From NCBI RefSeq assembly GCF_030013595.1, contig NZ_CP122769.1: a stretch of DNA of 64,000 nt; one strand, 5' to 3'. The notes beneath the pieces were generated by a model. That model saw only the letters and a program-made list of their open reading frames with translations, searched no databases and was not told the origin of the DNA. A program made the translations under genes and the position numbers. Each line of letters starts with the position of its first letter. The first letter of the stretch is position 1. The stretch is from Escherichia coli (GTDB lineage: Bacteria; Pseudomonadota; Gammaproteobacteria; Enterobacterales; Enterobacteriaceae). Of this stretch, positions 48,863 through 64,000 are shown in pieces.

Positions 48863-48960
48863 AACAGCCTAAAAGTTGTACGCCCTATTTAACAGCTTTT
48901 AGGCTGTTAATTTGATATTACAGCTTTTAGGGTGTATGTTTAGGAAACAGCCTGCAAGGT
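48863..48960 (+). promoter_or_regulatory. hipBA promoter/operator region with repeated ACAGCYTW-type palindromes
   Basis: Palindromes AACAGCCTAAAAG..., AACAGCTTTTAGGCTGTT, ACAGCTTTTAGGGTGT, AACAGCCTGCAAGGTGT; embedded TTGATA - 17 bp - TATGTT (48912-48940) promoter-like hexamers. Confidence 0.45.
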
Positions 48961-48989
48961 GTATCAGAGGAAACTACTGAGGCCAGCTT

Positions 48990-49286
48990 ATGATCAATAA
49001 TGATTACCCGTTAAACACGCTCAACCAGCTGCGTCCCTTGCTCATTGGTTTTCGCAAGGCGAATGGCCTGACGCAAAAAGACCTGTCCGAAAGGTTAGGC
49101 GTCACTCAACAGACATACTCACGTCTGGAAGCCAACCCTGCCAGTGCGAGCATTGAACGGCTATTCAAGGTGTTTTCCATCCTGGGCGTAAAAATCAGCT
49201 TCTCCTCGGCAACCACCTCTTCAGAGAGGAAGCAGACGGAAGAAATGCTTAAATCAAACTCACCTGCACGACAGGAGGATTGGTAA
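48990..49286 (+). CDS. hipB: HipB antitoxin (Cro/C1-type HTH)
   Basis: HTH segment GLTQKDLSERLGVTQQTYSRLE; immediately upstream of hipA with 4-bp gap. Confidence 0.85.
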   Translation: MINNDYPLNTLNQLRPLLIGFRKANGLTQKDLSERLGVTQQTYSRLEANPASASIERLFKVFSILGVKISFSSATTSSERKQTEEMLKSNSPARQEDW

Positions 49287-49290
49287 CGAT

Positions 49291-50616
49291 ATGAGCCGGA
49301 AACAGCAACGTCTGGTAATTTGGATGAACGGCATCAAAGTCGGGTACTGGGAAAAAAGCAAAGGGGTAGACAGCTTAGAATACCTTCCTGAATGGGTTGC
49401 TGACGAACAGGGAAGGCCGCTGTCATTGTCCCTTCCTTTTACTCCCGGGAACCAGGTCTGGCGTGGAAATGTGGTACGTGACTATTTTGATAATTTACTG
49501 CCGGACAGCGAAGGCATACGCAGACGTCTGGCAATGCGTTACAAGGCCGATAGCCTGGAGCCTTTTGATCTGCTGACGGAGCTGGGAAAAGACTGCGTGG
49601 GCGCGATACAGCTGCTTCATGACGGAGATGAACCCACTGATTTATATTCCGTGAAGTATCACCCGCTTACTGAATCAGAAATTGCGGCAACTTTGCGTAA
49701 TACCACGGAGACATTGCTACCGGGCAGGCCAGAAGATAACGACGACTTACGTTTATCTATTGCCGGTGCTCAGGAGAAAACAGCCCTACTGTGGCATGAA
49801 GATCGGTGGTGTATGCCGGAGGGTAATACACCAACGACGCATATATTCAAGCTACCGCTCGGACTTGTGGGGAACATGAAAGCCGACATGAGCTCGTCGG
49901 TTGAAAATGAATGGCTCTGCTCGGTACTTCTCGGCCAGTACGGGCTCCCCGTGGCAAGAACGCAGATTGCTCACTTTGAAGATCAGAAAGCGCTGGTGGT
50001 AGAACGTTTTGACCGAAAATGGTCAGGAGACGGACAATGGATCATTCGTTTACCCCAGGAGGATATGTGTCAGGCCCTGGGCGTTTCGCCATTACGAAAA
50101 TATCAGGCGGACGGCGGGCCAGGTATATCGGAAATTATGGAGGTTCTGAGTAATTCAGACCGTGCTGAGCGTGACAAAGCGCAGTTTTTTATGACGCAGA
50201 TAATTTTCTGGATGATGGCCGCAACAGATGGCCACGCTAAAAATTTCAGTATTTCTATTGGGCCACAGGGACGTTATCACCTTACACCAAACTATGATGT
50301 GTTGTCGGCATGGCCGGTGATCGGTCATGGGAACAATCAGATATCCTGGCAGAAGTGCAAACTGGCGATGGCCGTACGTGGCAGTAGCAACTATTACCAG
50401 ATATATCGAATACAACGACGCCACTGGATCAGGCATGGTGAGATAACCGGCCTGAGTAAACAGCAGACAGAGGCGATGATAGAGGAAATCATCGCCAGAA
50501 CCCCGGGTGTCATTGAACGTGTTAGCGGGCTTCTTCCGGACCAGTTCCCCCAGCAGCTTGCGGAAAGTATTTTTGATGGAATGAGGCAGCAATGCAGGCG
50601 CCTGGCTGAGAAATGA
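49291..50616 (+). CDS. hipA: HipA serine/threonine kinase toxin
   Basis: Colinear with E. coli HipA including SIAGAQEKTALL, VERFDR, RLPQEDMCQ and ATDGHAKNFS motifs. Confidence 0.9.
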   Translation: MSRKQQRLVIWMNGIKVGYWEKSKGVDSLEYLPEWVADEQGRPLSLSLPFTPGNQVWRGNVVRDYFDNLLPDSEGIRRRLAMRYKADSLEPFDLLTELGKDCVGAIQLLHDGDEPTDLYSVKYHPLTESEIAATLRNTTETLLPGRPEDNDDLRLSIAGAQEKTALLWHEDRWCMPEGNTPTTHIFKLPLGLVGNMKADMSSSVENEWLCSVLLGQYGLPVARTQIAHFEDQKALVVERFDRKWSGDGQWIIRLPQEDMCQALGVSPLRKYQADGGPGISEIMEVLSNSDRAERDKAQFFMTQIIFWMMAATDGHAKNFSISIGPQGRYHLTPNYDVLSAWPVIGHGNNQISWQKCKLAMAVRGSSNYYQIYRIQRRHWIRHGEITGLSKQQTEAMIEEIIARTPGVIERVSGLLPDQFPQQLAESIFDGMRQQCRRLAEK

Positions 50617-52654: not shown

Positions 52655-52930
52655 GTGGCTTCTGTTTCTATCAGCTGTCCCTCCTGTTCAGCTACTGACG
52701 GGGTGGTGCGTAACGGCAAAAGCACCGCCGGACATCAGCGCTATCTCTGCTCTCACTGCCGTAAAACATGGCAACTGCAGTTCACTTACACCGCTTCTCA
52801 ACCCGGTACGCACCAGAAAATCATTGATATGGCCATGAATGGCGTTGGATGCCGGGCAACCGCCCGCATTATGGGCGTTGGCCTCAACACGATTTTCCGC
52901 CATTTAAAAAACTCAGGCCGCAGTCGGTAA
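52655..52930 (+). CDS. insA: IS1 InsA
   Basis: 91-aa product with zinc-finger [10 protein letters not shown]...CSHCRK and HTH, matching IS1 InsA. Confidence 0.9.
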
Positions 52931-53352
52931 CCTCGCGCATACAGCCGGGCAGTGACGTCATCGTCTGCGCGGAAATGGACGAACAGTGGGGATACGTCGG
53001 GGCTAAATCGCGCCAGCGCTGGCTGTTTTACGCGTATGACAGGCTCCGGAAGACGGTTGTTGCGCACGTATTCGGTGAACGCACTATGGCGACGCTGGGG
53101 CGTCTTATGAGCCTGCTGTCACCCTTTGACGTGGTGATATGGATGACGGATGGCTGGCCGCTGTATGAATCCCGCCTGAAGGGAAAGCTGCACGTAATCA
53201 GCAAGCGATATACGCAGCGAATTGAGCGGCATAACCTGAATCTGAGGCAGCACCTGGCACGGCTGGGACGGAAGTCGCTGTCGTTCTCAAAATCGGTGGA
53301 GCTGCATGACAAAGTCATCGGGCATTATCTGAACATAAAACACTATCAATAA
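52849..53352 (+). CDS. insB: IS1 InsB (expressed as InsAB' by -1 frameshift)
   Basis: 167-aa frame overlapping insA 3' end; sequence matches IS1 InsB. Confidence 0.85.
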
Positions 53353-53510: not shown

Positions 53511-54176
53511 CTAACGACTACCACTTTTAAGTATGTATTGAGCCAGTTTTATATTCAGGCACACCATATTGCACTCTAGCTCTTTCATCATTCTTGAAGA
53601 ACTCTTAATTAAGTATTCTTCAAGTGGGCCAGCATATGCCCCTGATGTCACGATCGTTAGTTGCGTAAGAGGATGAGTCAAACTCTCAATGCCCTTCAGG
53701 ATGTCATTCTGGACAGCAGCAATATAAACAGGCGAAGCCGCAATCAAATATTCATCATTCGGGCTGGACTGCATTAACTGGCTTATAGTTGCGCAACGGT
53801 TATGCTTACCTAGTGATTTTGTGATGGCTTTCCACCAGAGATCATGCCTGAATGGTACTTGATGAAATGTCGCCTCGTAAGAGGGCACCCGATCTCGACT
53901 ATTTAAAAACCCCATCCCGGCAGAGATTATCCACAACTCCAGATTTCTGGTTGAGTTTAAAATTTCCTTTGCCGTAGACCAGTGATTACCTGAATACAAG
54001 GACAATGCCGGTACCGCCTGATTACTTCTGGCGTCGTCTACAATGTTACTCCAGGCATATGCTGCGTCGTCCGGGGTTTGTTTTGGATCTATGTCCAATG
54101 TCGGCCAGACGTGGCCCTGATGATTCTTGCCCTTTGTACAGGAAGTGATTAAGTGTACTGAGCGTTCAGAGAACAT
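53511..54176 (-). CDS. hypothetical protein
   Basis: 221-aa ORF downstream of and co-directional with 54234-54614; no recognisable motifs. Confidence 0.45.
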   Translation of the reverse strand: MFSERSVHLITSCTKGKNHQGHVWPTLDIDPKQTPDDAAYAWSNIVDDARSNQAVPALSLYSGNHWSTAKEILNSTRNLELWIISAGMGFLNSRDRVPSYEATFHQVPFRHDLWWKAITKSLGKHNRCATISQLMQSSPNDEYLIAASPVYIAAVQNDILKGIESLTHPLTQLTIVTSGAYAGPLEEYLIKSSSRMMKELECNMVCLNIKLAQYILKSGSR

Positions 54177-54233
54177 TATCTTCCTTACATACCCATAGAA
54201 CAGCTTTCTAAGAACGGTGGGCTCGCCTGAAAA

Positions 54234-54614
54234 TTACAAATCAGCCCCTTTCACGGCATCATTTTGATTCTTCGCGTCTGCCCCCAGTAAGATGACCGGT
54301 TTTCTGCATGACAGTGTTATTCCTAACAAACGCAACACAAAACCACGCCAGCCAGAGCAAATTTTTTCATTTGCTGCGTAAAGCCTATTGTTTTCTCTTT
54401 TAAGCTTCGCCCACTCGTTACAGAGGGTAACATCATCAAGCGCTGTTATATGCTTCGCCTCACCTTCGACGATAACGGTATGGATACCGTATGCTGTAAA
54501 TCTCATACTATTTTCCAGAACCCAGTTGCGGTATTCGTCGAGTCCACCTTCGGAACCGGTAGCTCTGCGCCACATTTCAATTTGCTTGTGTGATGGGTCA
54601 AGTGTACTTGTCAT
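54234..54614 (-). CDS. hypothetical protein
   Basis: 126-aa ORF; no recognisable motifs. Confidence 0.45.
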   Translation of the reverse strand: MTSTLDPSHKQIEMWRRATGSEGGLDEYRNWVLENSMRFTAYGIHTVIVEGEAKHITALDDVTLCNEWAKLKRENNRLYAANEKICSGWRGFVLRLLGITLSCRKPVILLGADAKNQNDAVKGADL

Positions 54615-55207
54615 TGAAGCCTCGTCTCAGCGATAACGCTTGAAATAGCCCGCTTTGGTCATCATGAAATTAGCCATCTGACTGGCGATTTGATTGTATC
54701 TTACTCATAGTGCCCTACCTATAGGTTAAAAAGGGGCATTTTCGCTTTATAGCGTGTTCAGCAGCATCAATCCTCCCAAGAAAGGCTGGCTTATTAAGCC
54801 GGTCCATCATTTTCTGTATATCTCTCATCAATTTTTATATCCGCCCTGGAGTGCACCGTTCAAGCACACCGATTAGGCAGATAGTCACTAGTTAACTCTT
54901 TACTAGTGACTAAATTCCATTGATATACGTGACAACGTCACGTCATGAAAGCTTTTAAATGCCTATTTTTCATACAATGGGATTTAATTAGGAGTAAATC
55001 CCATAGGCTTACATAAGGATGACAATTAAAAGCGTTAAATATCAACCAGATAGAATGATTACCCCCAATTAATGGGCTCATCACATTATTTCACTGGCTG
55101 GGGTTATTGCTGGCATATCTGAAAGTGCTAATATGTTAGTCATTAGTAATTAGTAAAGCCTTTACTAAACGCGTTTCTACGTAAATTCTATAGGTTTTAT
55201 AGGGTCC

Positions 55208-55290
55208 TGTCCGAGGACAATAAAGTTGTACACAAAGCACTAAAGTTGTAACCATTCTCAAAAAACGACGCTAATGTTGTATACTTACTG
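55208..55290 (+). repeat. Tn7-like end with three TnsB-binding-type repeats (AAAGTTGTA core)
   Basis: GACAATAAAGTTGTACAC, CACTAAAGTTGTAACC, CGCTAATGTTGTATAC in direct orientation within 80 bp of the TGT terminus. Confidence 0.6.
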
Positions 55291-55365
55291 AATGTGTGGT
55301 TATAGGGTTGGAGACTATAAAATGCACATATAGGTACGTATCAATGTCGTTTTTAGGGTACGATC

Positions 55366-56208
55366 ATGGCTAGGGGTAGGCGTCTCAAATCCTATTTGGA
55401 TTATGAAAATGCGCTAGGTGACGGCATAGGAGTGGGCTATGGCCAAAGTTATCAGCCCTGGCTTAGAGCTCAGGACGTTAAATCCCGTGGAAACCGTTCG
55501 ATAGTCTTTGGCCTTAAGACGTTTCGAAACCATCATCTCCTTTCTTCTGTCGAAAGTAACTTTTTCTATCTGGCTGAGTTTAATGACTCGGTGATTGATA
55601 TCCGGGAACAATTCCCACTCTTTCCTCTCCGGCTTACCCAACAAATAGCAAATCATCTACATTTTCAACATCCTATGGTGAGGGGAGTAAGAGGAGTACC
55701 TGTCGAAGTTCTGAATGTTATGACAACCGATTTTTTACTGACCTTGAGAACTCCTGAAGGCGGACTTCGATACAAAGCTATAGCAGTAAAACATAACGAG
55801 AGCATACCTGAACGCGAAGCCCAAAAACTTGAAATAGAGAGGATGTTTTGGCAGTTGATTGATGTTGAGTTTCAAATTTATGTTGGCTCGGAACTCAATA
55901 ACGTCGTCGGTAAAAACATTTGCTGGGCTACTTCTGTATTAAGAGATGGTTCTGAATTTTATGATAAATATCCTCTTGATAAAATCCTATGGAAGCTTAA
56001 ACCAGATGTTTATCCCATAGTAGGACTACGTGCAATGATTTCATCAATCTTTGGGGTAGATGCACAAGAAGCGATGATGTTATTGCAGGCAATGATTGGA
56101 TTAAAAATGATAAATGTTGATTTATCATATCCAATACTCGAAACCGGTCTGATAAAGATAATTTCCAATGACCACTATATAGGACTGAACGCAAATGGAT
56201 ATTATTAG
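55366..56208 (+). CDS. tnsA: TnsA-like endonuclease
   Basis: Colinear with Tn7 TnsA (YQPWLRAQDV..., HLLSS, IDIREQFPLFPL, LEIERMFWQ). Confidence 0.85.
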   Translation: MARGRRLKSYLDYENALGDGIGVGYGQSYQPWLRAQDVKSRGNRSIVFGLKTFRNHHLLSSVESNFFYLAEFNDSVIDIREQFPLFPLRLTQQIANHLHFQHPMVRGVRGVPVEVLNVMTTDFLLTLRTPEGGLRYKAIAVKHNESIPEREAQKLEIERMFWQLIDVEFQIYVGSELNNVVGKNICWATSVLRDGSEFYDKYPLDKILWKLKPDVYPIVGLRAMISSIFGVDAQEAMMLLQAMIGLKMINVDLSYPILETGLIKIISNDHYIGLNANGYY

Positions 56209-58318
56209 GAATTCAGTCTGGCTCTCTCAAGGCACTGATTTGCTTGCAGAGGGACTTTACCGTGTTTTGGATTTTGACAGAAAGGTCGATTTGTTAATTT
56301 TGTTTAAAATAAAATCAGAAAGAACGGGTAAGCCAATCCCTTTCTCATTTTCAATGTTTAAATATTATATTGAATCAAATAGCATAACTTGTAAAGATTA
56401 TATATATCCTTCATATATGTTAGTAGATGAGAAAGAATTAACAGATAAAGACAGAGGAAGGCGAGATGAAAATTACAATATCATTAAAGATCTTGTAGAT
56501 GACAGAATGTTTCTGTTCGACTATGCATTACATAAAAAGTCGCACCTTTTAATGGATTACTCAAGAAATAAAAAAATATCACAATATACTATCAGAACGC
56601 TTCTGGCGTTGTATTGGCGACATGGGCAGGATATTTATGCATTGCTACCCGCATTCTCGAACTGTGGCGCCGCTGGGAAAAGTAGAATCAAACATGAAAT
56701 TAAACTTGGGAATTCCAAAAAAAACAGAGCATTACCTAATGAACGATCACGTGTTTTCATTCTTAATGAAAGAGATATAAATAATATTAGAAAATCTCTC
56801 ATTACGTATCATTATAAAGTTAACGGAGATACGATAAAGAAAACATTAGAGAGACATATTGATTTGTATTTTAGGGATGAAATTAAAACAGCAAACCTAG
56901 AAAATAGAGCTCCATATGTTCCTTCTTTAAAACAATTTTCATACTGGAATAAAAAACTCTTCACTAAAGATTTCTCGATAAATAAGAAGAACACGAAAAA
57001 AGAAATAGACCTCAAAATGCGGGCGCTTTTAGGTAGTGTGGCTAATACAACTGTTTTGCCGGGTGATGTTTTCGAAATAGACTCAACTGTCGCTGATGTA
57101 CATCTTATTTCGAGTTTAAACAGACGAAAAGTCATTGGGCGTCCTACTATTTATACAGTGGTGGATCGTGCAACAAGAATGATTGTTGGCCTTCATGTTT
57201 CTTTATACCATGCTTCATGGCGAGCCGCCCGACAAGCGTTAGCAAATTGCTTTATGCCAAAAAAAGAATATTGTAGATTATTTGGAATCTCTATTACTGA
57301 TGATGATTGGCCTTGTTCTCACATTCCATTAACATTGATGTGTGACAACGGGGAGATGATTGGTCTTAAACCTCAGGAAGAGATGACCCCCCTGACAAAA
57401 CTTGAGTTTGCGCCAGTCGGTAGAGGCGACAGAAAAAGCATTGTTGAACGCTGTTTCGGCATTCTGAATGATGAGGTTATTCATAGGCTTATTGGAACAA
57501 CACGAAGGGGAAAGATTGTTAAAGGAGAGCCAACACCGCAATCCAGGGCTTGTTTAACGATTCAGGAGGTCACGTCTTTACTGATTCGGGAGATACTTGC
57601 ACATAATCAGAGAACGTATGAGGAACTGGCTTATATCAATCCCTTACTGATTGAAAATGATCTCGTAATATCACCAAAAAATAGTTGGATGATAAGCTTA
57701 AAGCACGGGAGATTCAGCGCAAGAGCCGTTGGGGCCGACGAAGTGATCGCACGATTGTTAATCCCTGTGAACGCTAACATTACCGCCGGTGGGATTCAGT
57801 ACAATAATCTTTTTTATGAATGTGATCCTGAAATTGCATCAGGTGTCAGAGTATTTGGAAGAACCACTTGTGAAGCAAGAATAGATGACAATTGCGTAGA
57901 TTATATATATGTAAGATTTGACAAAAATAGCATTTTCAAAAAACATTACCTACTTAAGAAAAGAGATGTATTTAAAGGGAAAGCTCATCTTGATACAGAT
58001 GTAATGGCTGATTGGGTAGATACTCAAAAAGAAATTAATTTATTTACTCTGGATTCGCTCAGCAATATCAATAATAAAGATGAATTTAACAGGAAAGGTA
58101 ACGAAAGATTAAATGAAATATACGAATCTCGCCGGGTACATGGTAAAGATATTAAAAAGAACAGAAAAAATGAACTTGATTCATTAGGGCGAACTCATGT
58201 TGCTAATGGAAGATCTGAACCCCTACTTCCTTCATCCAGTAATGTTCTGCTTTTGCCTGGCCGGGAGGAGAAACAAAGATGGTTAAAAGGTAAGAAGAAG
58301 ACTGAGGACGCAGAATAA
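56195..58318 (+). CDS. tnsB: TnsB-like DDE transposase
   Basis: 707-aa product in TnsB position, overlapping tnsA stop; Mu/Tn7-type transposase organisation. Confidence 0.8.
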   Translation: MDIIRNSVWLSQGTDLLAEGLYRVLDFDRKVDLLILFKIKSERTGKPIPFSFSMFKYYIESNSITCKDYIYPSYMLVDEKELTDKDRGRRDENYNIIKDLVDDRMFLFDYALHKKSHLLMDYSRNKKISQYTIRTLLALYWRHGQDIYALLPAFSNCGAAGKSRIKHEIKLGNSKKNRALPNERSRVFILNERDINNIRKSLITYHYKVNGDTIKKTLERHIDLYFRDEIKTANLENRAPYVPSLKQFSYWNKKLFTKDFSINKKNTKKEIDLKMRALLGSVANTTVLPGDVFEIDSTVADVHLISSLNRRKVIGRPTIYTVVDRATRMIVGLHVSLYHASWRAARQALANCFMPKKEYCRLFGISITDDDWPCSHIPLTLMCDNGEMIGLKPQEEMTPLTKLEFAPVGRGDRKSIVERCFGILNDEVIHRLIGTTRRGKIVKGEPTPQSRACLTIQEVTSLLIREILAHNQRTYEELAYINPLLIENDLVISPKNSWMISLKHGRFSARAVGADEVIARLLIPVNANITAGGIQYNNLFYECDPEIASGVRVFGRTTCEARIDDNCVDYIYVRFDKNSIFKKHYLLKKRDVFKGKAHLDTDVMADWVDTQKEINLFTLDSLSNINNKDEFNRKGNERLNEIYESRRVHGKDIKKNRKNELDSLGRTHVANGRSEPLLPSSSNVLLLPGREEKQRWLKGKKKTEDAE

Positions 58319-59766
58319 TGAATCTTATACGGCGCGTTTCAGCGATATATAAAGAACAGGAGTTACCTGAGTATCGTGGCAATCCCTTAATTGAAGCACT
58401 TCCTGAAGCGCTTACGGAAGATGAAGTACTTCTGGAAATGAGTTATTTCCCCGAAATTGACGAAAAAATCCGCTGGACTGCCCCGGCGAATGTTAGAGAG
58501 CAGTATGTCGAACGTATAAAGAAATTCCGTTGCCCTCAAACCAATCTTATCCAGGCTTATAAGATGATCTTACGGGCACTTAGGGAAAGCTATGCAGCTC
58601 GTAATCCTTTAAAAAGCGGAACAATTCAATATCTTCATTACTATGGAAATGAGCGTCCTGATATTGAGCCAGAAAGTGGATATTTTAAATCCCAGGCTGA
58701 AACTATTACGATAGTTGGAATGAGTGGTTCTGGAAAAACTACCATGATTGAGCAAGTCATGGAACATTTCCCTCAGATTATAGAACACAGCAGCTATAAA
58801 GGAGTTTTTCCCGGCTTCAGTAAGCAAATTGTATGGGTAAAGATTAATTGTCCATACAATTCAAGTGTGAGAGACCTTTGTGAAGAGATTTTACAAAAAT
58901 TAGATGATGCAATTGGTATTGAACGAACTACACCTGAGATTAGAAATGGTGCTCTGGCTCGCCAGATTGCACAAAGAATTAAATCATCATTTTTGGGTAT
59001 CCTTGTTATTGATGAAATGCAGAGGCTTAAATTTTCAAGAACCGGGGGTGAGAGTAAGTTGATTGATTTTTTACATGAAATTGTAGATTCCATGGGGGTA
59101 TCTATGGTTTTTTGTGGAAATCATCCTTTTGACGAGACGCTGACAAAGAAAATGAGAATTGCCAGGCGGGCAGAGTCTGGTGGTTACATGAAAATTAAGA
59201 ATGTTAGATACGATTCACAAGACTGGCAATCGTTTATTCATTATTTATGGCCATTACAATGGACAAATGTTGAAACTCCATTAAATGATGAGTTAAACGA
59301 AAAATTATTCATTTTATCTAAAGGCAATATTGGATTGGCTCAGATGATTTATCGGGGGGCACAATTAAAGGTTATCGGTAGCGGCAATGAAATCATCACT
59401 GGCGCAGTCTTGTCGGCCTCTGTACCGGTACTCGTGAGTCATACGGAGGAATATAAGGATACTCCACTCCCGGGGGCCGCGACTGAAGATGAGGAAGCTA
59501 AATGGCTCTCTGCATCTAATGAGGGTGATGCTTCGGCTAAAATCATGGCAGAGAAGTCCCTAAAGTCTTTGATCCCTGGGGATATAGACAGGCCACAGCA
59601 CAAGGAATTCGTAGGAAAAATAGACGAGGTTTTGCGCAATTTCGACGAGAAAATACTGTCTCTTGACCACGATCTTGTTATCAACAGAACAGCTGAAAAG
59701 AAAAATACCTACGATGCTCTTCAGCGTTGCGGGCTTATAAATATAGATCCACTTAATAAATTGTAA
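58318..59766 (+). CDS. tnsC: TnsC-like AAA+ ATPase
   Basis: Walker A GMSGSGKTT, Walker B LVIDEMQRL; start overlaps tnsB stop. Confidence 0.85.
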   Translation: MNLIRRVSAIYKEQELPEYRGNPLIEALPEALTEDEVLLEMSYFPEIDEKIRWTAPANVREQYVERIKKFRCPQTNLIQAYKMILRALRESYAARNPLKSGTIQYLHYYGNERPDIEPESGYFKSQAETITIVGMSGSGKTTMIEQVMEHFPQIIEHSSYKGVFPGFSKQIVWVKINCPYNSSVRDLCEEILQKLDDAIGIERTTPEIRNGALARQIAQRIKSSFLGILVIDEMQRLKFSRTGGESKLIDFLHEIVDSMGVSMVFCGNHPFDETLTKKMRIARRAESGGYMKIKNVRYDSQDWQSFIHYLWPLQWTNVETPLNDELNEKLFILSKGNIGLAQMIYRGAQLKVIGSGNEIITGAVLSASVPVLVSHTEEYKDTPLPGAATEDEEAKWLSASNEGDASAKIMAEKSLKSLIPGDIDRPQHKEFVGKIDEVLRNFDEKILSLDHDLVINRTAEKKNTYDALQRCGLINIDPLNKL

Positions 59767-59797: not shown

Positions 59798-61363
59798 GTG
59801 TGGGAAATGAGAATGTTGCCTGTTTTGCCTGATGAATCCTTGTTCAGCCGGTTTTGTCGGACAACTACCGTGTACGGTATGTCCCCATCTTCTCTGTTAA
59901 CGATCATTTTCAACAAACCTGATATGAACGTCCATCCAATTCTCAATTCAGGATTAAAGGCTATTTCTCTTCATACATCCGAAAGTGCAGATCAGCTCTG
60001 GCATGAACAGACTTTACTCCCTCTTTTTGCCTGGGCACTACCAATCAGTCGTAATGAAATTATGGATTTCAACACGACCCCTGCCAGGCTTAATCGATTG
60101 TGCCGCCTTAGTAATTTTTCACTAGGGCAGCGCACACTATTGAAGTTTTGCCCGGTTTGCGCTCGTGAAGATACTTTTCATTATGGTGTTACTTATTGGC
60201 ATCTGGCGCATCAGCTTCATGGGGTTACAACCTGCCATCGGCATCCGGTAGCGCTTGAAAGCATCCATGTCCCTTCTTCACCGCACATACGTATTGGACT
60301 GATGCCTCCTGTTTCGTATACAGAACAACTTAGCAATGAGATAGACTTCGATTTTGCTAAGTTTTGTTATGAGTCCCTAAATATAATCAGAAGAAAAGAT
60401 ATTACACACCCCAATTACATGGATGTACTTAAAAAGTTGAATTTATTATCATTGGATGGAAATTTAAAGAAAAATGTATTCTACGCACATGTTTATGCTA
60501 AGTGCCAGTTATTTGGGGAGGGTTCATCGGGACTTATACCAACATCCCTAACTGATTATCATTACTGGGAGCCTATACTCAAAGACAAATGTTGTCAGCA
60601 TCCCACAAAGCATCTTTTGCTTTGTTATTGTTTGTTAAATACTTGCTGGCCAACGTATGCAGGAAGTCGTACTAATAAAAAGAAAGAAATCTTTAAAAGT
60701 CATAAGAAATACAGTTTTCATATAGTTGAAAATAATACTAGTGTTAGCAACCTTGGGAAGGAATTTAGTCGCAGCAGATGTTACATTAAAACACTTATTT
60801 ATAAAAAATACCTGAGGGCGTTTAAGCGAAACACAAAAATTAATATATTCACTGAATTGCTTATCAAGTCTATGGCTGTAAGGGGGTTTAGTCTGGCATC
60901 CATAGCTGAGAAAAACTCATTATCGGAAGGAGCTGTATCCTCTGTAATTTCATCTTGTTACGGTTTATGCTCATGGCGTAAAAAATGTAAAAAAGATTCT
61001 TTAAGACGGCGTCATAAGCAGAAAATATTAAGATTTATACATAATCAATCCGTTTCTATAACACGAAAGTTAGTCAAAGAAAGTTGTTATGCAAGTTTCT
61101 ATTGGCTAAATAAACATGAATGTGACTGGCTTAATTCCTGTCTTCCTAAAACAATACGATGCTATAAAAATAAAAGAGTAGACTGGAGCGAGAGAGATAT
61201 TATCTCATCATCATTAATAAATGATGTTTTATCTCAGGGGCAGTACTCGATGTCACTTACAAGTCTAGATGCTTTACTGGGAGGGCATGGCTGGCTTTTG
61301 AAATACAGAGATAAACTACCAATGACAATGATACTTCTCAGAAAAATGGAACTAATTAAATAA
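59798..61363 (+). CDS. tnsD: TnsD/TniQ-family target-selection protein
   Basis: N-terminal zinc-finger pattern CPVCAREDTFHYGVTYWHLAHQLHGVTTCHRHP characteristic of TniQ/TnsD. Confidence 0.7.
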   Translation: MWEMRMLPVLPDESLFSRFCRTTTVYGMSPSSLLTIIFNKPDMNVHPILNSGLKAISLHTSESADQLWHEQTLLPLFAWALPISRNEIMDFNTTPARLNRLCRLSNFSLGQRTLLKFCPVCAREDTFHYGVTYWHLAHQLHGVTTCHRHPVALESIHVPSSPHIRIGLMPPVSYTEQLSNEIDFDFAKFCYESLNIIRRKDITHPNYMDVLKKLNLLSLDGNLKKNVFYAHVYAKCQLFGEGSSGLIPTSLTDYHYWEPILKDKCCQHPTKHLLLCYCLLNTCWPTYAGSRTNKKKEIFKSHKKYSFHIVENNTSVSNLGKEFSRSRCYIKTLIYKKYLRAFKRNTKINIFTELLIKSMAVRGFSLASIAEKNSLSEGAVSSVISSCYGLCSWRKKCKKDSLRRRHKQKILRFIHNQSVSITRKLVKESCYASFYWLNKHECDWLNSCLPKTIRCYKNKRVDWSERDIISSSLINDVLSQGQYSMSLTSLDALLGGHGWLLKYRDKLPMTMILLRKMELIK

Positions 61364-61374
61364 GAGGGAGTTAT

Positions 61375-62301
61375 ATGGTTTACGAAAATGAATTGTGGCA
61401 CAGTTTTCTTCTGCGTTCACAGATAATGTATAACTTATCCAATTGCAGGAACATAATATCAAAGCATGGCGCACTAAGGTACGATGCCTTTCCTCGTTTC
61501 GAACTGATTGATATGTACAAATTGCATAGCTTGCAGGATATATATGACATTCTTGCCACTAGAAATGGTTATATACTAACTTCCAATATAGTGTCGTTAT
61601 CTTCTGGTGTTTACGGGTATTTTAACGCTGTTGAAGATGCCTGTCGGAAAAATTTTCACATAACTAATTCATATCCATTGGTAAACATCTCAAACATTCG
61701 TTACTGTCACAAATGTATTGTTGAAGATATACACTCTAAAGGCATTGGTTATCTGCGTCATAGATGGTTGTTTGAATCTAAATGTGCAGTTCATAGTACC
61801 AGTTTATATGAGGTTTGTTTTGATAACTATTTGAATGCAGTGAAAGGACTTAGTGACTTAATTATAAGTGGAATAAATCCTCATGGTTATTGTTCCCTTG
61901 TGGTTGACGTTTCAAACCCTTTCAAAAATCCAGTGTATATATTACCATGTGCACGTAATAAAATTTTAAAATGGATTTCGGACAATAAAAATATGCTGAT
62001 TTACTTTCTCTTTGATCTCTTCAAATGTAAGTCGCATTCAAGTTTATCTAAGGTTATCGAAGTCAAGATAATGCATGATAGATATATTTCTGCGGTGTTC
62101 AAGATGTTAAGTGAAGTTAATTTTTGTAATTTCAACTCATTTATTTCTGATATTTTTGAGGACGTAAGTTATGCCTCTATCGGACTTGATGATTATTCTG
62201 TTAATGTGCATTTTCTCAGGCTAAGGGCTGCAGATTGTAAATTTTGCCAGTTGAATGGTAAATATTTTTGCTCACTTTACAATGTAAAATTTCTTCGCTA
62301 A
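61375..62301 (+). CDS. second TniQ-like protein (308 aa) in the position normally held by TnsE
   Basis: Repeats the TniQ-type pattern CHKCIVEDIHSKGIGYLRHRWLFESKCAVHS; too short and dissimilar to be Tn7 TnsE. Confidence 0.45.
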   Translation: MVYENELWHSFLLRSQIMYNLSNCRNIISKHGALRYDAFPRFELIDMYKLHSLQDIYDILATRNGYILTSNIVSLSSGVYGYFNAVEDACRKNFHITNSYPLVNISNIRYCHKCIVEDIHSKGIGYLRHRWLFESKCAVHSTSLYEVCFDNYLNAVKGLSDLIISGINPHGYCSLVVDVSNPFKNPVYILPCARNKILKWISDNKNMLIYFLFDLFKCKSHSSLSKVIEVKIMHDRYISAVFKMLSEVNFCNFNSFISDIFEDVSYASIGLDDYSVNVHFLRLRAADCKFCQLNGKYFCSLYNVKFLR

Positions 62302-62653
62302 TTTCACTTCATTTATAAAATACTAAGAAAGCTAGTTAGATAAGGTTTTATATTTTGACTGGGGCAGGAATAAATTATCACTCATAGAGTTTCCCTGGGG
62401 GTTACCACCTGTGTATGATGCCGGTTAGCAACAACGTCTAAAAGACCTGCGATCACGTGGGTCCCTCTCCAGCAAAGGGGCAAGGGGTGCTATATAACGG
62501 TGTACTGCTTACCCAATACGGCCTTGTATTTGAAAGATGCCGCATCTTGGCAGGATTCGTATTACAGCCTATAGTCTGTTAATGAGCATTACAGCCTATA
62601 TGCTGTAAATCCCTGCGTTATGCTTGTTAACTCGTCGATACGGAAGGTCACTT

Positions 62654-62953
62654 ATGAACACTCAATACGCTTTGAAGACTTTGAATCAGTTACGTCCTGT
62701 TTTAATCGGCTTTCGCAAAGCCAATGGACTGACGCAAAAAGATGTTTCTGAACGTTTGGGTATAACACAGCAAACTTATGCCCGACTAGAGGCCAACCCT
62801 GCAAGTGCGGGTTTTGAGCGTTTGTTTAGGGTGTTCAGCGTCCTTGGAGTGGAGATCGTACTTTCATCCAGGGAACCATTGTCAGATGCAAAGCCCGAAT
62901 ACGGAGCTATGCACAATTATTCTTCACTTCCAGCCAGGCGGGAGAAATGGTGA
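62654..62953 (+). CDS. hipB: orphan HipB-like HTH protein inside the Tn7-like element
   Basis: About 80-85% identical by eye to the HipB at 48990-49286 (LNQLRPVLIGFRKANGLTQKDVSERLGITQQTYARLEANPAS); upstream palindromes ACAGCCTATAGTCTGT / ACAGCCTATATGCTGT; no hipA follows. Confidence 0.7.
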   Translation: MNTQYALKTLNQLRPVLIGFRKANGLTQKDVSERLGITQQTYARLEANPASAGFERLFRVFSVLGVEIVLSSREPLSDAKPEYGAMHNYSSLPARREKW

Positions 62954-63516
62954 CGCCTGGCGCTTCCCGGTCTAATTTTTCTTCAACAAGATTAACCCCT
63001 TAGCGGCCTGAAGTATCAGGTTGCGATAGAGCCTTTCATTTCTTCTGTTATGTTAAATACACCATTTTGAGCTATTTCGCTCGGCCTTAAATTATCTCTT
63101 CATTCTTCAGTGAAAATTTTATGTCGATCACATTATCGATGAATTTAGGAAATAATCCGTAAATGAAAATCTATCTTCTTTTAAATTCATCAGTGTCAGT
63201 AGCAAATATTACGCATAAAAGAATGGTTATTATTATCATTTAAATTATAAAGCTCATGAGTCAATTCCAAAAAATATAATAAGCATTGAAATCATTACCC
63301 GTGATTCTGGAGTTTTAACTTTGCCATGTAACCAACCACAAGTTAGTTTCCGGTGTTTTGAGGGGCAGTAAAGTTCTGAAAGCGCGACCAGATCATAATC
63401 CCGAAATGTCGTTAAGATATTCTGAATAACGGTTATCCCTGCTTGTTGGCAGGCATTTGAAAATATATTTTGTATTCAGGTTGCAGCAAAACGCTTTCTT
63501 ACACACAGGACTTCAT

Positions 63517-64000
63517 ATGCGGCTCAGAAAATTAAAACTGAAAAACTTCAGAGGCTACAGAAACTCTACTGAAATCATTATTGATGAAAGCATGACGGGT
63601 ATTGTCGGTCGTAATGACTTTGGGAAATCAACGCTTCTGGAAGCGCTGGCTATTTTTTTTGAAACAGAAGGAATGAAGGCTGACAAGAATGACATGAACT
63701 GTTTCAGCCTAAGAGAAGGGGACGGCCGTTTTGAAATAGCCTGTGAATTTGATGACCTGCCCGATTTTATCATGATCGACGACAGGGTGCAGACCACGCT
63801 CGCCTCAGAACATCTGCTGAATGAGGACGGCAATTTTGAAATCGTCAAAACGTTTAAAGCAACGACCTCAGGAAAACCGGAGCAGACCTGCATCCGCTGC
63901 ATCCACCCGGATGAGGAGCCCCTGAGAAATTTACTGGGCATGAAAATTTCTGAGCTCAAGGCGGTGGGAAAAGAAGTTGAAAAAAATGTGGCGGATAAAC
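63517..64000 (+). CDS. OLD/ABC-type (AAA_15/21-like) ATPase, N-terminal 161 codons; 3' end outside window
   Basis: ATG with RBS CAGGA; N-terminus MRLRKLKLKNFRGYRN...GIVGRNDFGKSTLLEAL (Walker A) typical of OLD-family/defence-associated ATPases; no stop before window end. Confidence 0.65.
   Translation, partial: MRLRKLKLKNFRGYRNSTEIIIDESMTGIVGRNDFGKSTLLEALAIFFETEGMKADKNDMNCFSLREGDGRFEIACEFDDLPDFIMIDDRVQTTLASEHLLNEDGNFEIVKTFKATTSGKPEQTCIRCIHPDEEPLRNLLGMKISELKAVGKEVEKNVADK

Follow-up and report, generated by a model that had tools for sequence, protein, structure and literature searches.

What is a helix-turn-helix (HTH) gene of the HipB family, with no hipA toxin gene behind it, doing beside an ATPase gene in the cargo of a copper- and silver-resistance transposon? 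The question arises at positions 62,302 to 64,000 of a 64,000-nucleotide stretch of Escherichia coli DNA (hereafter the window; assembly GCF_030013595.1, contig NZ_CP122769.1), where a Tn7-like sil/pco transposon carries the HTH gene, here called hipB2, and downstream of it on the same strand an OLD-family gene, here called old. We think it probable that these are two independent cargo genes, one for a self-repressing HipB-family protein without a toxin and the other for a defence enzyme of the Class 1 OLD type.

Where do the two genes reside? The window is part of an IncHI2 plasmid, with 100% identical matches such as the 232-kb NZ_CP117034 of Salmonella enterica, and the 1.7 kb of interest recurs in 100% identical copies in hundreds of E. 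coli genomes. An earlier note, made from the letters of the window alone, had placed the region inside a transposon, and mapping the end of the element confirmed this: three independent insertion sites start a common sequence, TGTCCGAGGACA..., at 55207/55208, and the region lies 7-9 kb inward from this right end (55208) of the Tn7/sil/pco copper/silver-resistance transposon, in its cargo. The genes tnsA, tnsB, tnsC and tnsD/tniQ stand beside the TGT-terminated end with the cargo distal to them, as in other Tn7-like elements; the left end is outside the window. In E. coli CP53 (L001) the transposon block directly follows yhiN and continues through copM, silE, silSR, silCFBA, silP and pcoABCD. 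The block is the Tn7/sil/pco element known from the literature, and its movement into yhiN-yhiM by transposition has been documented (PMC8417528; also PMC6211086). The transposon exists in a second lineage (L009), which has 95.3% overall identity and whose homology to the window begins at 55208. Both hipB2 and old are transposon cargo. Among 5426 complete E. coli genomes the region is found in 684 (12.6%), at 663 chromosomal and 49 plasmid places.

What kind of protein is HipB2? The gene has the coordinates of the RefSeq coding sequence and starts at an ATG with a GGAAGG ribosome-binding site; the protein contains the Pfam domain PF01381 (HTH_3) expected of an Xre-type HTH protein, and its best matches in the PDB are chains of E. 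coli HipB (2e-4). The earlier note had put its identity to the HipB at 48990, the antitoxin of the hipBA pair resident on the same plasmid, at 80-85%. Measured by BLASTP the figure is lower, at 64 of 99 residues (65%) overall and 55 of 71 (77%) in the N-terminal HTH core, with 70.6% DNA identity over 170 nt, and residues 72-92, comprising linker and tail, have strongly diverged. HipB2 scores 33 bits with the NCBIfam model HipB (cut-off 79) and 40 bits with couple_hipB (cut-off 71.65), and the resident HipB likewise stays below the cut-offs. The Xre-type HTH and a C-terminal Trp are common to HipB2 and to the HipB proteins of K-12 and of the IncHI2 plasmid. Two features do not vary among 18 members of the family, be they paired or orphan: the recognition helix TQQTY(A/S)RLE (TQQTYARLE in HipB2, one residue different from the resident protein) and the C-terminal PAR-x-E-x-W.

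The absence of a toxin gene, also recorded in the earlier note, was borne out. The resident HipA, itself a match (E=1e-100) to structures of E. coli HipA, gave a best tblastn E value of 21 against 62901-63560, downstream of hipB2, and blastn found nothing significant there, so that neither hipA nor a remnant of it was detected. No hipA accompanies the hipB-type gene in L005, L008-L010 or L015-L017. HipB relatives at 72% identity have a 442-residue HipA 4 nt downstream, 80% identical to the resident HipA, and orphan relatives without hipA occur in two unrelated, non-transposon Enterobacter contexts, at 78% and 72% identity. By its sequence, the HTH protein belongs to the HipB family and lacks a toxin. 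That there is a clade of such HipB proteins without toxins, most of them with a two-operator promoter, is recognised here for the first time.

How is hipB2 controlled? We scanned the whole window for ACAGC-N6-GCTGT with at most one mismatch and compared the result with 100 shuffles. Eight matches were found where 1.33 were expected, a number that none of the 100 shuffles reached, and six of the eight lie upstream of hipB genes, four before the resident hipB (48864-48962) and two before hipB2, with a spacing of 27-28 nt at both loci. The palindromes that the earlier note had ascribed to hipB2 thus exist and are of the same type as the resident four; they are unlike the hip operator of E. coli K-12, which is TATCC-N8-GGATA. 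Both HipA-paired loci examined have four operators (window 48864-48962; L006:4873-4970), whereas toxin-less hipB genes have two (62564-62606; L005:5909-5951), at about -90 and -63 from the ATG; in the orphans L015-L017 one site passes the scan (L015:4909) and a weaker, degenerate second candidate can be picked out by eye. The layout in which the promoter-like site of hipB2 overlaps its first operator is the same in the orphan hipB of Enterobacter L005. Elsewhere in the transposon (upstream of old, tns, sil and pco) no further hip operators were found, and one-mismatch matches there look like chance. The operators are enriched over chance and conserved. Palindromic operators in the gene's own promoter are what HipB autoregulation calls for, and the predicted sites of hipB2 lie there. 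A HipB2 dimer would most likely repress its own promoter via the two operators, one of which would cover the -10 element, and we infer that hipB2 encodes a functional, self-repressing, toxin-less HipB-family repressor.

Could HipB2 also act on the hipBA of the plasmid? HipB2 retains the helix that reads DNA, the type of operator and the tail at the C-terminus of its HipA-paired relatives, and could therefore bind the resident hipBA operators or HipA. Cross-regulation is plausible, judged by the operator half-sites, the recognition helix and the PAR-x-E-x-W tail; more speculatively, a HipB2 made on the IncHI2 plasmid itself could occupy the resident operators and possibly contact HipA. From here it is a short step to an anti-addiction or escape function, in which hipB2 would neutralise and/or repress IncHI2-type hipBA, so that a chromosomal transposon would let the cell lose the plasmid without growth arrest by HipA, or persistence would be retuned. 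We regard this as unlikely. It has the shared operator type and spacing on its side, as well as the single-residue difference in the recognition helix, the tail invariant in paired and orphan proteins alike, and the conservation of hipB2, which is 96.7% identical between the window lineage and L009 where the flanking spacers are 88.0% and 89.5% identical. A pMG101-B stock is on record in which the transposon had relocated to the chromosome and the IncHI2 part was gone (PMC8417528), an anecdote rather than a test. An anti-addiction role has been proposed for orphan antitoxins (PMC7192599, PMC2654758), and those described (chromosomal ccd as against F ccd; the Klebsiella HipA-type case, PMC7192599) resemble hipB2 in being toxin-less homologues on a different replicon or element from the related complete toxin-antitoxin (TA) pair, although neutralisation or cross-repression by hipB2 is putative only. 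Against this, IncHI2-type hipBA is found in 284 E. coli genomes and the mostly chromosomal hipB2 in 684, which leaves at least 400 without the target; the Enterobacter orphan relatives stand in unrelated, non-transposon contexts; residues 72-92 of HipB2 have strongly diverged from the resident HipB; and post-segregational killing by IncHI2 hipBA is purely putative.

What does old encode? Its open reading frame (ORF) begins MRLRKLKLKNFRGYRN...GRNDFGKST at 63518, the GKST-containing start to which the earlier note had drawn attention. The same note expected the ATPase to continue beyond the window toward unseen partner genes; the ORF does run off the window, but the partners did not materialise. 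The full ORF, taken from L001, which is 100% identical to the window over 62300-64000, ends at 608 residues and is followed by convergent copM and silE, and in the transposon copies L001, L008, L009 and L010 there is no helicase, reverse transcriptase or separate Toprim gene beside old. Pfam assigns residues 1-375 to AAA_15, an ABC ATPase domain (E=3.9e-66), and residues 423-494 to OLD-like_TOPRIM (E=3.7e-6). In a motif alignment of 63 representatives at 30-71% identity, the Walker A residues G36/K37, the signature G305-S306-G307, the Walker B residues E337-E338-P339-E340 and H371 are invariant, as are E430/G431/D434 and D492 of the Toprim domain and also Y530; D494 and E528/N529 occur in at least 90%. 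Old has all of them. The AlphaFold2 model of Old has a predicted local distance difference test score of 88.4, with the Toprim region above 88, and its best Foldseek match in the PDB is 6p74, the Class 1 enzyme Ts OLD (8.7e-19, probability 1.00), followed by GajA, retron Eco8 and PtuA. Pfam, matches to solved structures and Foldseek thus agree with the earlier placement of the ATPase in the OLD family. Among cluster representatives, 448 proteins, mostly of 595-640 residues, match at E<=1e-30; the 63 in the motif alignment were drawn from these. The label that NCBI already gives to the cluster is 'OLD family endonuclease'.

Between the two transposon lineages old has accumulated 57 synonymous and 17 non-synonymous changes, a ratio of non-synonymous to synonymous substitution rates (dN/dS) of 0.08, and it is under purifying selection. 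Residue 318 (L001:22169-22171) is Trp in the window lineage and Arg in L009 and in the family consensus LLNFFRAEAE.

To which class of OLD enzymes does Old belong? Under the published class definitions (PMC10568477, PMC12392090), its sequence identifies it as a complete, single-gene OLD nuclease of the Class 1 type, without a partner gene: it combines an ABC ATPase bearing all motifs, the Toprim Glu and DxD, a single gene and an OLD-like fold. This assignment, for a protein very common in E. coli, is new here. Among full OLD structures, Ts OLD (6p74) is the top match in sequence (6.4e-7) as it is in fold, and the PADLOC 'Old' model matches at 9.5e-23; the two proteins are only about 19% identical, however, and Old is longer (608 residues against a 528-residue chain). 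The Old subfamily is separate from Ts OLD as well as P2 Old and unusually conserved, at about 70% identity across Gamma-, Beta- and Alphaproteobacteria. The only Class 1 enzymes studied are P2 Old, Ts OLD and Vc OLD (PMC12392090). P2 Old is a sensor of RecBCD inhibition that cleaves tRNA (PMC12445682); Ts OLD is an exonuclease and Vc OLD a DNA nickase (PMC12392090). The last of these, from Vibrio cholerae and likened to Old by description only, is a bacterial single-gene OLD with demonstrated anti-phage activity that is independent of RecBCD; no other cellular Class 1 enzyme provides an experimental precedent for working alone (PMC12392090). By analogy with these three, Old would most likely serve in defence against phages or mobile elements without a partner gene; its ATPase would sense or license, and the cutting, of DNA (by nicking or degradation) or of tRNA, would fall to its two-metal Toprim site. 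Among the defence cargo of Tn7-like elements, OLD nucleases rank second in frequency (PMC8649781).

The frequency of old in complete E. coli genomes, 12.6%, may be set beside the 0.45% of genomes in which DefenseFinder reports a Class 1 OLD (PMC12392090), with the proviso that the genome sets differ. Standard tools may miss counting the Old subfamily.

The earlier note had offered, together with OLD, the related classes Gabija, Septu and PARIS; OLD stands, as a Class 1 type, and the other three do not. Gabija GajA (Class 2) shares the two-domain architecture, is the second-best fold and is represented by many PADLOC models that match Old, down to 9e-24. Neither a GajB nor another UvrD-type helicase is adjacent in L001, L008, L009 or L010, and none is conserved beside the homologs; helicases occur near only two Old homolog loci and are not adjacent there. 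PARIS (AriA/AriB, Class 4) likewise joins an ABC ATPase to a Toprim domain, and the top PADLOC match of Old is the 'AriA' model (4.5e-56). This model is coextensive with AAA_15 (1-372/373 against 1-373/374); the solved AriA matches Old at only E=3e-3 and is absent from the top 50 fold matches; and the C-terminal half of Old matches AriB at 2.3e-3, more weakly than it matches GajA, the GajA and Old models being the better ones. Pfam assigns this part of the protein to OLD-like_TOPRIM and returns no DUF4435 match, which disposes of the fused AriAB as well. The likeness to the Septu protein PtuA is confined to the P-loop and Walker B segments; Old has a Toprim domain and no HNH (PtuB) neighbour. 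A RecF- or SbcC-like repair operon, the outcome that the earlier note had named as telling against its proposal, was also looked for and is rejected: NCBIfam matches to RecF, Rad50 and SMC ATPases amount to the P-loop only, at 16-30 bits over residues 1-80 against cut-offs of 172-1087, and the context is transposon cargo.

Do the relatives of old disclose its function? Proteins about 70% identical to Old are found in Pseudomonas, Marinomonas, Aeromonas, Idiomarina, Roseateles and rhizobia, and others at about 80% in several Enterobacterales. We surveyed the contexts of 25 loci of the 70% clade with usable upstream sequence. Twelve have a type I restriction-modification (R-M) operon, hsdR-(rmuC or DUF1016)-hsdM-hsdS, directly upstream of old. 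In most of these about 30 nt or less separate the end of the hsdS match from the start of old, the distance in L003 being 110 nt; in L002, from Marinomonas, hsdS and old are separated by a DUF6602 gene. One further locus, from Idiomarina, retains only a fragment of hsdS. The Pseudomonas-type hsd-old loci have HsdR and HsdM at 87-98% identity and HsdS at only about 30%. Copies from Aeromonas sit between CBASS and nSTAND/NERD-helicase genes; standalone copies make up the whole Enterobacterales clade at 80% (six loci, six species) and about half of the loci otherwise. No partner gene is conserved across about 30 old loci. Such neighbourhoods support a defence role for Old. The frequent operon link between close relatives of old and type I R-M is new here, and it is hard to square with a review in which Class 1 genes are said not to have other candidate defence genes close by (PMC10568477).

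The same link, in which old is the final gene of the hsd operon in about half of the close relatives, suggests a bolder idea, namely that the Old subfamily is a guard of type I R-M that fires when anti-restriction proteins put the restriction enzyme out of action, with the Tn7/sil/pco copy as a portable solo version, carried by copper and silver use into about 13% of complete E. coli genomes, and HipB2 blunting the hipBA of the IncHI2 plasmids that transport the transposon. Responses to the anti-restriction proteins of phages have precedents in PrrC, which acts with EcoprrI, and in PARIS, which acts with Ocr. We think this distinctly unlikely.

Seven hsd-linked loci (L003:9982-12641; L028, L034, L037, L038, L041, L042) have a second AAA_15/AAA_21 ATPase of about 577 residues downstream of old, followed in six of the seven by a protein of about 300 residues without a Pfam match. 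These two genes look like another two-gene defence pair.

Are hipB2 and old a single system? The two are adjacent on the same strand and are kept together in both transposon lineages, and HipB2 has weak PADLOC matches to the regulator models capH (1.2e-3) and HTH_VI (1.6e-4), all of which would suit a HipB2 dedicated to the OLD nuclease, either as its transcriptional regulator or as its antitoxin, in the way that HTH regulators precede other defence systems. The DNA between the genes argues otherwise. The earlier estimate of about 560 AT-rich base pairs was accurate; the spacer measures 564 bp at a G+C fraction of 0.356 (0.449 in the whole window), and neither it nor the vicinity of the old start contains a hip operator. 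Searches for a hipA remnant in the spacer, for Rfam matches in 61500-64000 (E<=1) and for terminators in 62200-64000 were all negative. The spacer differs by about 10% between the two transposon lineages except in its last 64 nt (63454-63517), directly upstream of old; these are identical and may be the promoter or leader of old, although no consensus promoter was detected in them. Other old loci share no upstream region with this one beyond about 11-29 nt before the start codon. Moreover, a gene like hipB2, or a tns gene, was found near none of about 31 related old loci, so that the hipB2-old linkage occurs only in the Tn7/sil/pco transposon, and orphan relatives of hipB2 live elsewhere without an old gene. 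We consider a two-gene system highly improbable.

Might both genes instead be debris, hipB2 a neutral leftover of a decayed hipBA and old a stray gene, severed from a type I R-M operon and unable to function by itself? HipB2 lacks its HipA, its dN/dS of 0.45 on 10 changes is compatible with neutrality, an operon with hsdRMS houses about half of the close homologs of old, the Idiomarina locus has no more than its hsdS fragment, and an AT-rich spacer of 564 bp parts the two genes. The low dN/dS of old, its full set of catalytic residues and the standalone copies in Enterobacterales and beyond speak for a working enzyme, however. The hipB2 coding sequence and its operator half-sites are better conserved than the flanks, and the two-operator orphan promoter exists in the unrelated context L005 too. 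Because no trace of hipA is left, its loss must be old, yet hipB2 persists. We give the debris explanation little credence.

What, then, weighs against two independent cargo genes, each functional by itself? We found no experiment on the Old protein in the searchable literature, and no mention of hipB2 or old in the literature searched on sil/pco and on the island for copper homeostasis and silver resistance (CHASRI). The Pfam match to the Toprim domain is modest, and the template modelling scores of the Foldseek comparison with 6p74 are low (0.33/0.38), probably owing to the domain arrangement. The three characterised Class 1 enzymes act differently, by tRNA cleavage, DNA nicking and exonuclease activity. 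A convincing sigma-70 promoter for old was not found, and with about half of its close homologs in an hsd operon the solo copy may lack a functional context that it needs. For hipB2, the dN/dS value is uninformative and decides nothing, since only 10 substitutions underlie it, and the majority of transposon copies are in genomes that have no IncHI2-type hipBA, at least 400 genomes with hipB2 being of this kind. We nevertheless hold to two independent cargo genes; the transposon itself, the gene's correct annotation as OLD, the carriage of OLD genes by Tn7-like elements and orphan antitoxins (PMC7192599) were already known. Coordinates are collected in the table.

Table. Coordinates of the features of the hipB2-old region, of the transposon and of the loci used for comparison (window positions unless a locus is named)
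Feature	Position	Strand	Details
hip-type operator 1 (predicted), ACAGCCTATAGTCTGT	62564..62579		ACAGC-N6-GCTGT type; identical in L009
hip-type operator 2 (predicted), ACAGCCTATATGCTGT	62591..62606		27 nt after operator 1; ACAGCTTATCTGCTGT in L009, only spacer bases differ, half-sites kept
promoter-like site of hipB2	62547..62575	+	TTGGCA, 17 nt, TATAGT; 10/12 matches; -10 in operator 1 spacer
hipB2, putative orphan HipB-family HTH repressor/antitoxin	62654..62953	+	99 aa; 65% identity to resident HipB; best PDB match E. coli HipB
AT-rich spacer	62954..63517		564 bp
old, first 161 codons in window	63518..64000	+	full gene 1827 nt / 608 aa, runs off window
tnsA-proximal (right) end of Tn7-like sil/pco transposon	55208..55365	+	starts TGTCCGAGGACA; repeated ...AAGTTGTA... 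motifs; homology with yhiN copy (L001) and third site (L009)
tnsA	55366-56208	+	ORF, RefSeq name, Pfam Tn7_TnsA-like_N
tnsB	56195-58318	+	ORF, RefSeq name, Pfam HTH_TnsB
tnsC	58318-59766	+	ORF, RefSeq name, Pfam TniB/AAA_22
tnsD/TniQ	59798-61363	+	ORF, RefSeq name, Pfam TniQ+TnsD
ORF in tnsE position	61375-62301	+	308 aa; no Pfam match
resident IncHI2 hipBA (comparison)	48864..50616	+	operators 48864, 48892, 48920, 48947; hipB 48990-49286; hipA 49291-50616
hsd-old loci	old at about 8001 in each		L003, L023, L025, L028, L031, L032, L034, L037, L038, L041, L042, L002; Pseudomonas, Stutzerimonas, Perlucidibaca, Marinomonas

Some further observations concern the element around the two genes. The ORF in the tnsE position is the fastest-diverging gene of the tns region between the transposon lineages (92.7% DNA identity) and is interrupted by IS5 in E. 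coli CP53 (L001:17877-20002). A conserved stretch at 62385-62500 occurs only together with the transposon, in 672 genomes, and folds no better than shuffled sequences (z=0.86). Three E. coli sequences, NZ_CP183123, NZ_CP183117 and NZ_CP183138, have a copy of ISVsa5 (IS4-like) inserted in the hipB2-old region. Just beyond the right end of the transposon, toward the resident hipBA, lie an IS1 copy and two minus-strand ORFs of 221 and 126 residues; the intervals concerned are 52655-53352 and 53511-54614.

Why should a metal-resistance transposon with these passengers matter? Tn7/sil/pco is among the most widespread metal-resistance transposons of Enterobacterales. Should Old prove to be an active nuclease against phages, selection by copper and silver on farms and in clinics would also favour a phage-defence gene, and such co-selection, if true, would bear on phage therapy and on the spread of defence genes. 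Class 1 OLD enzymes are poorly understood, and Old, which is conserved, common in E. coli and related to proteins encoded in R-M operons, would make a convenient model. The toxin-less HipB clade, for its part, offers a simple test case for cross-talk between orphan antitoxins and plasmid TA modules.

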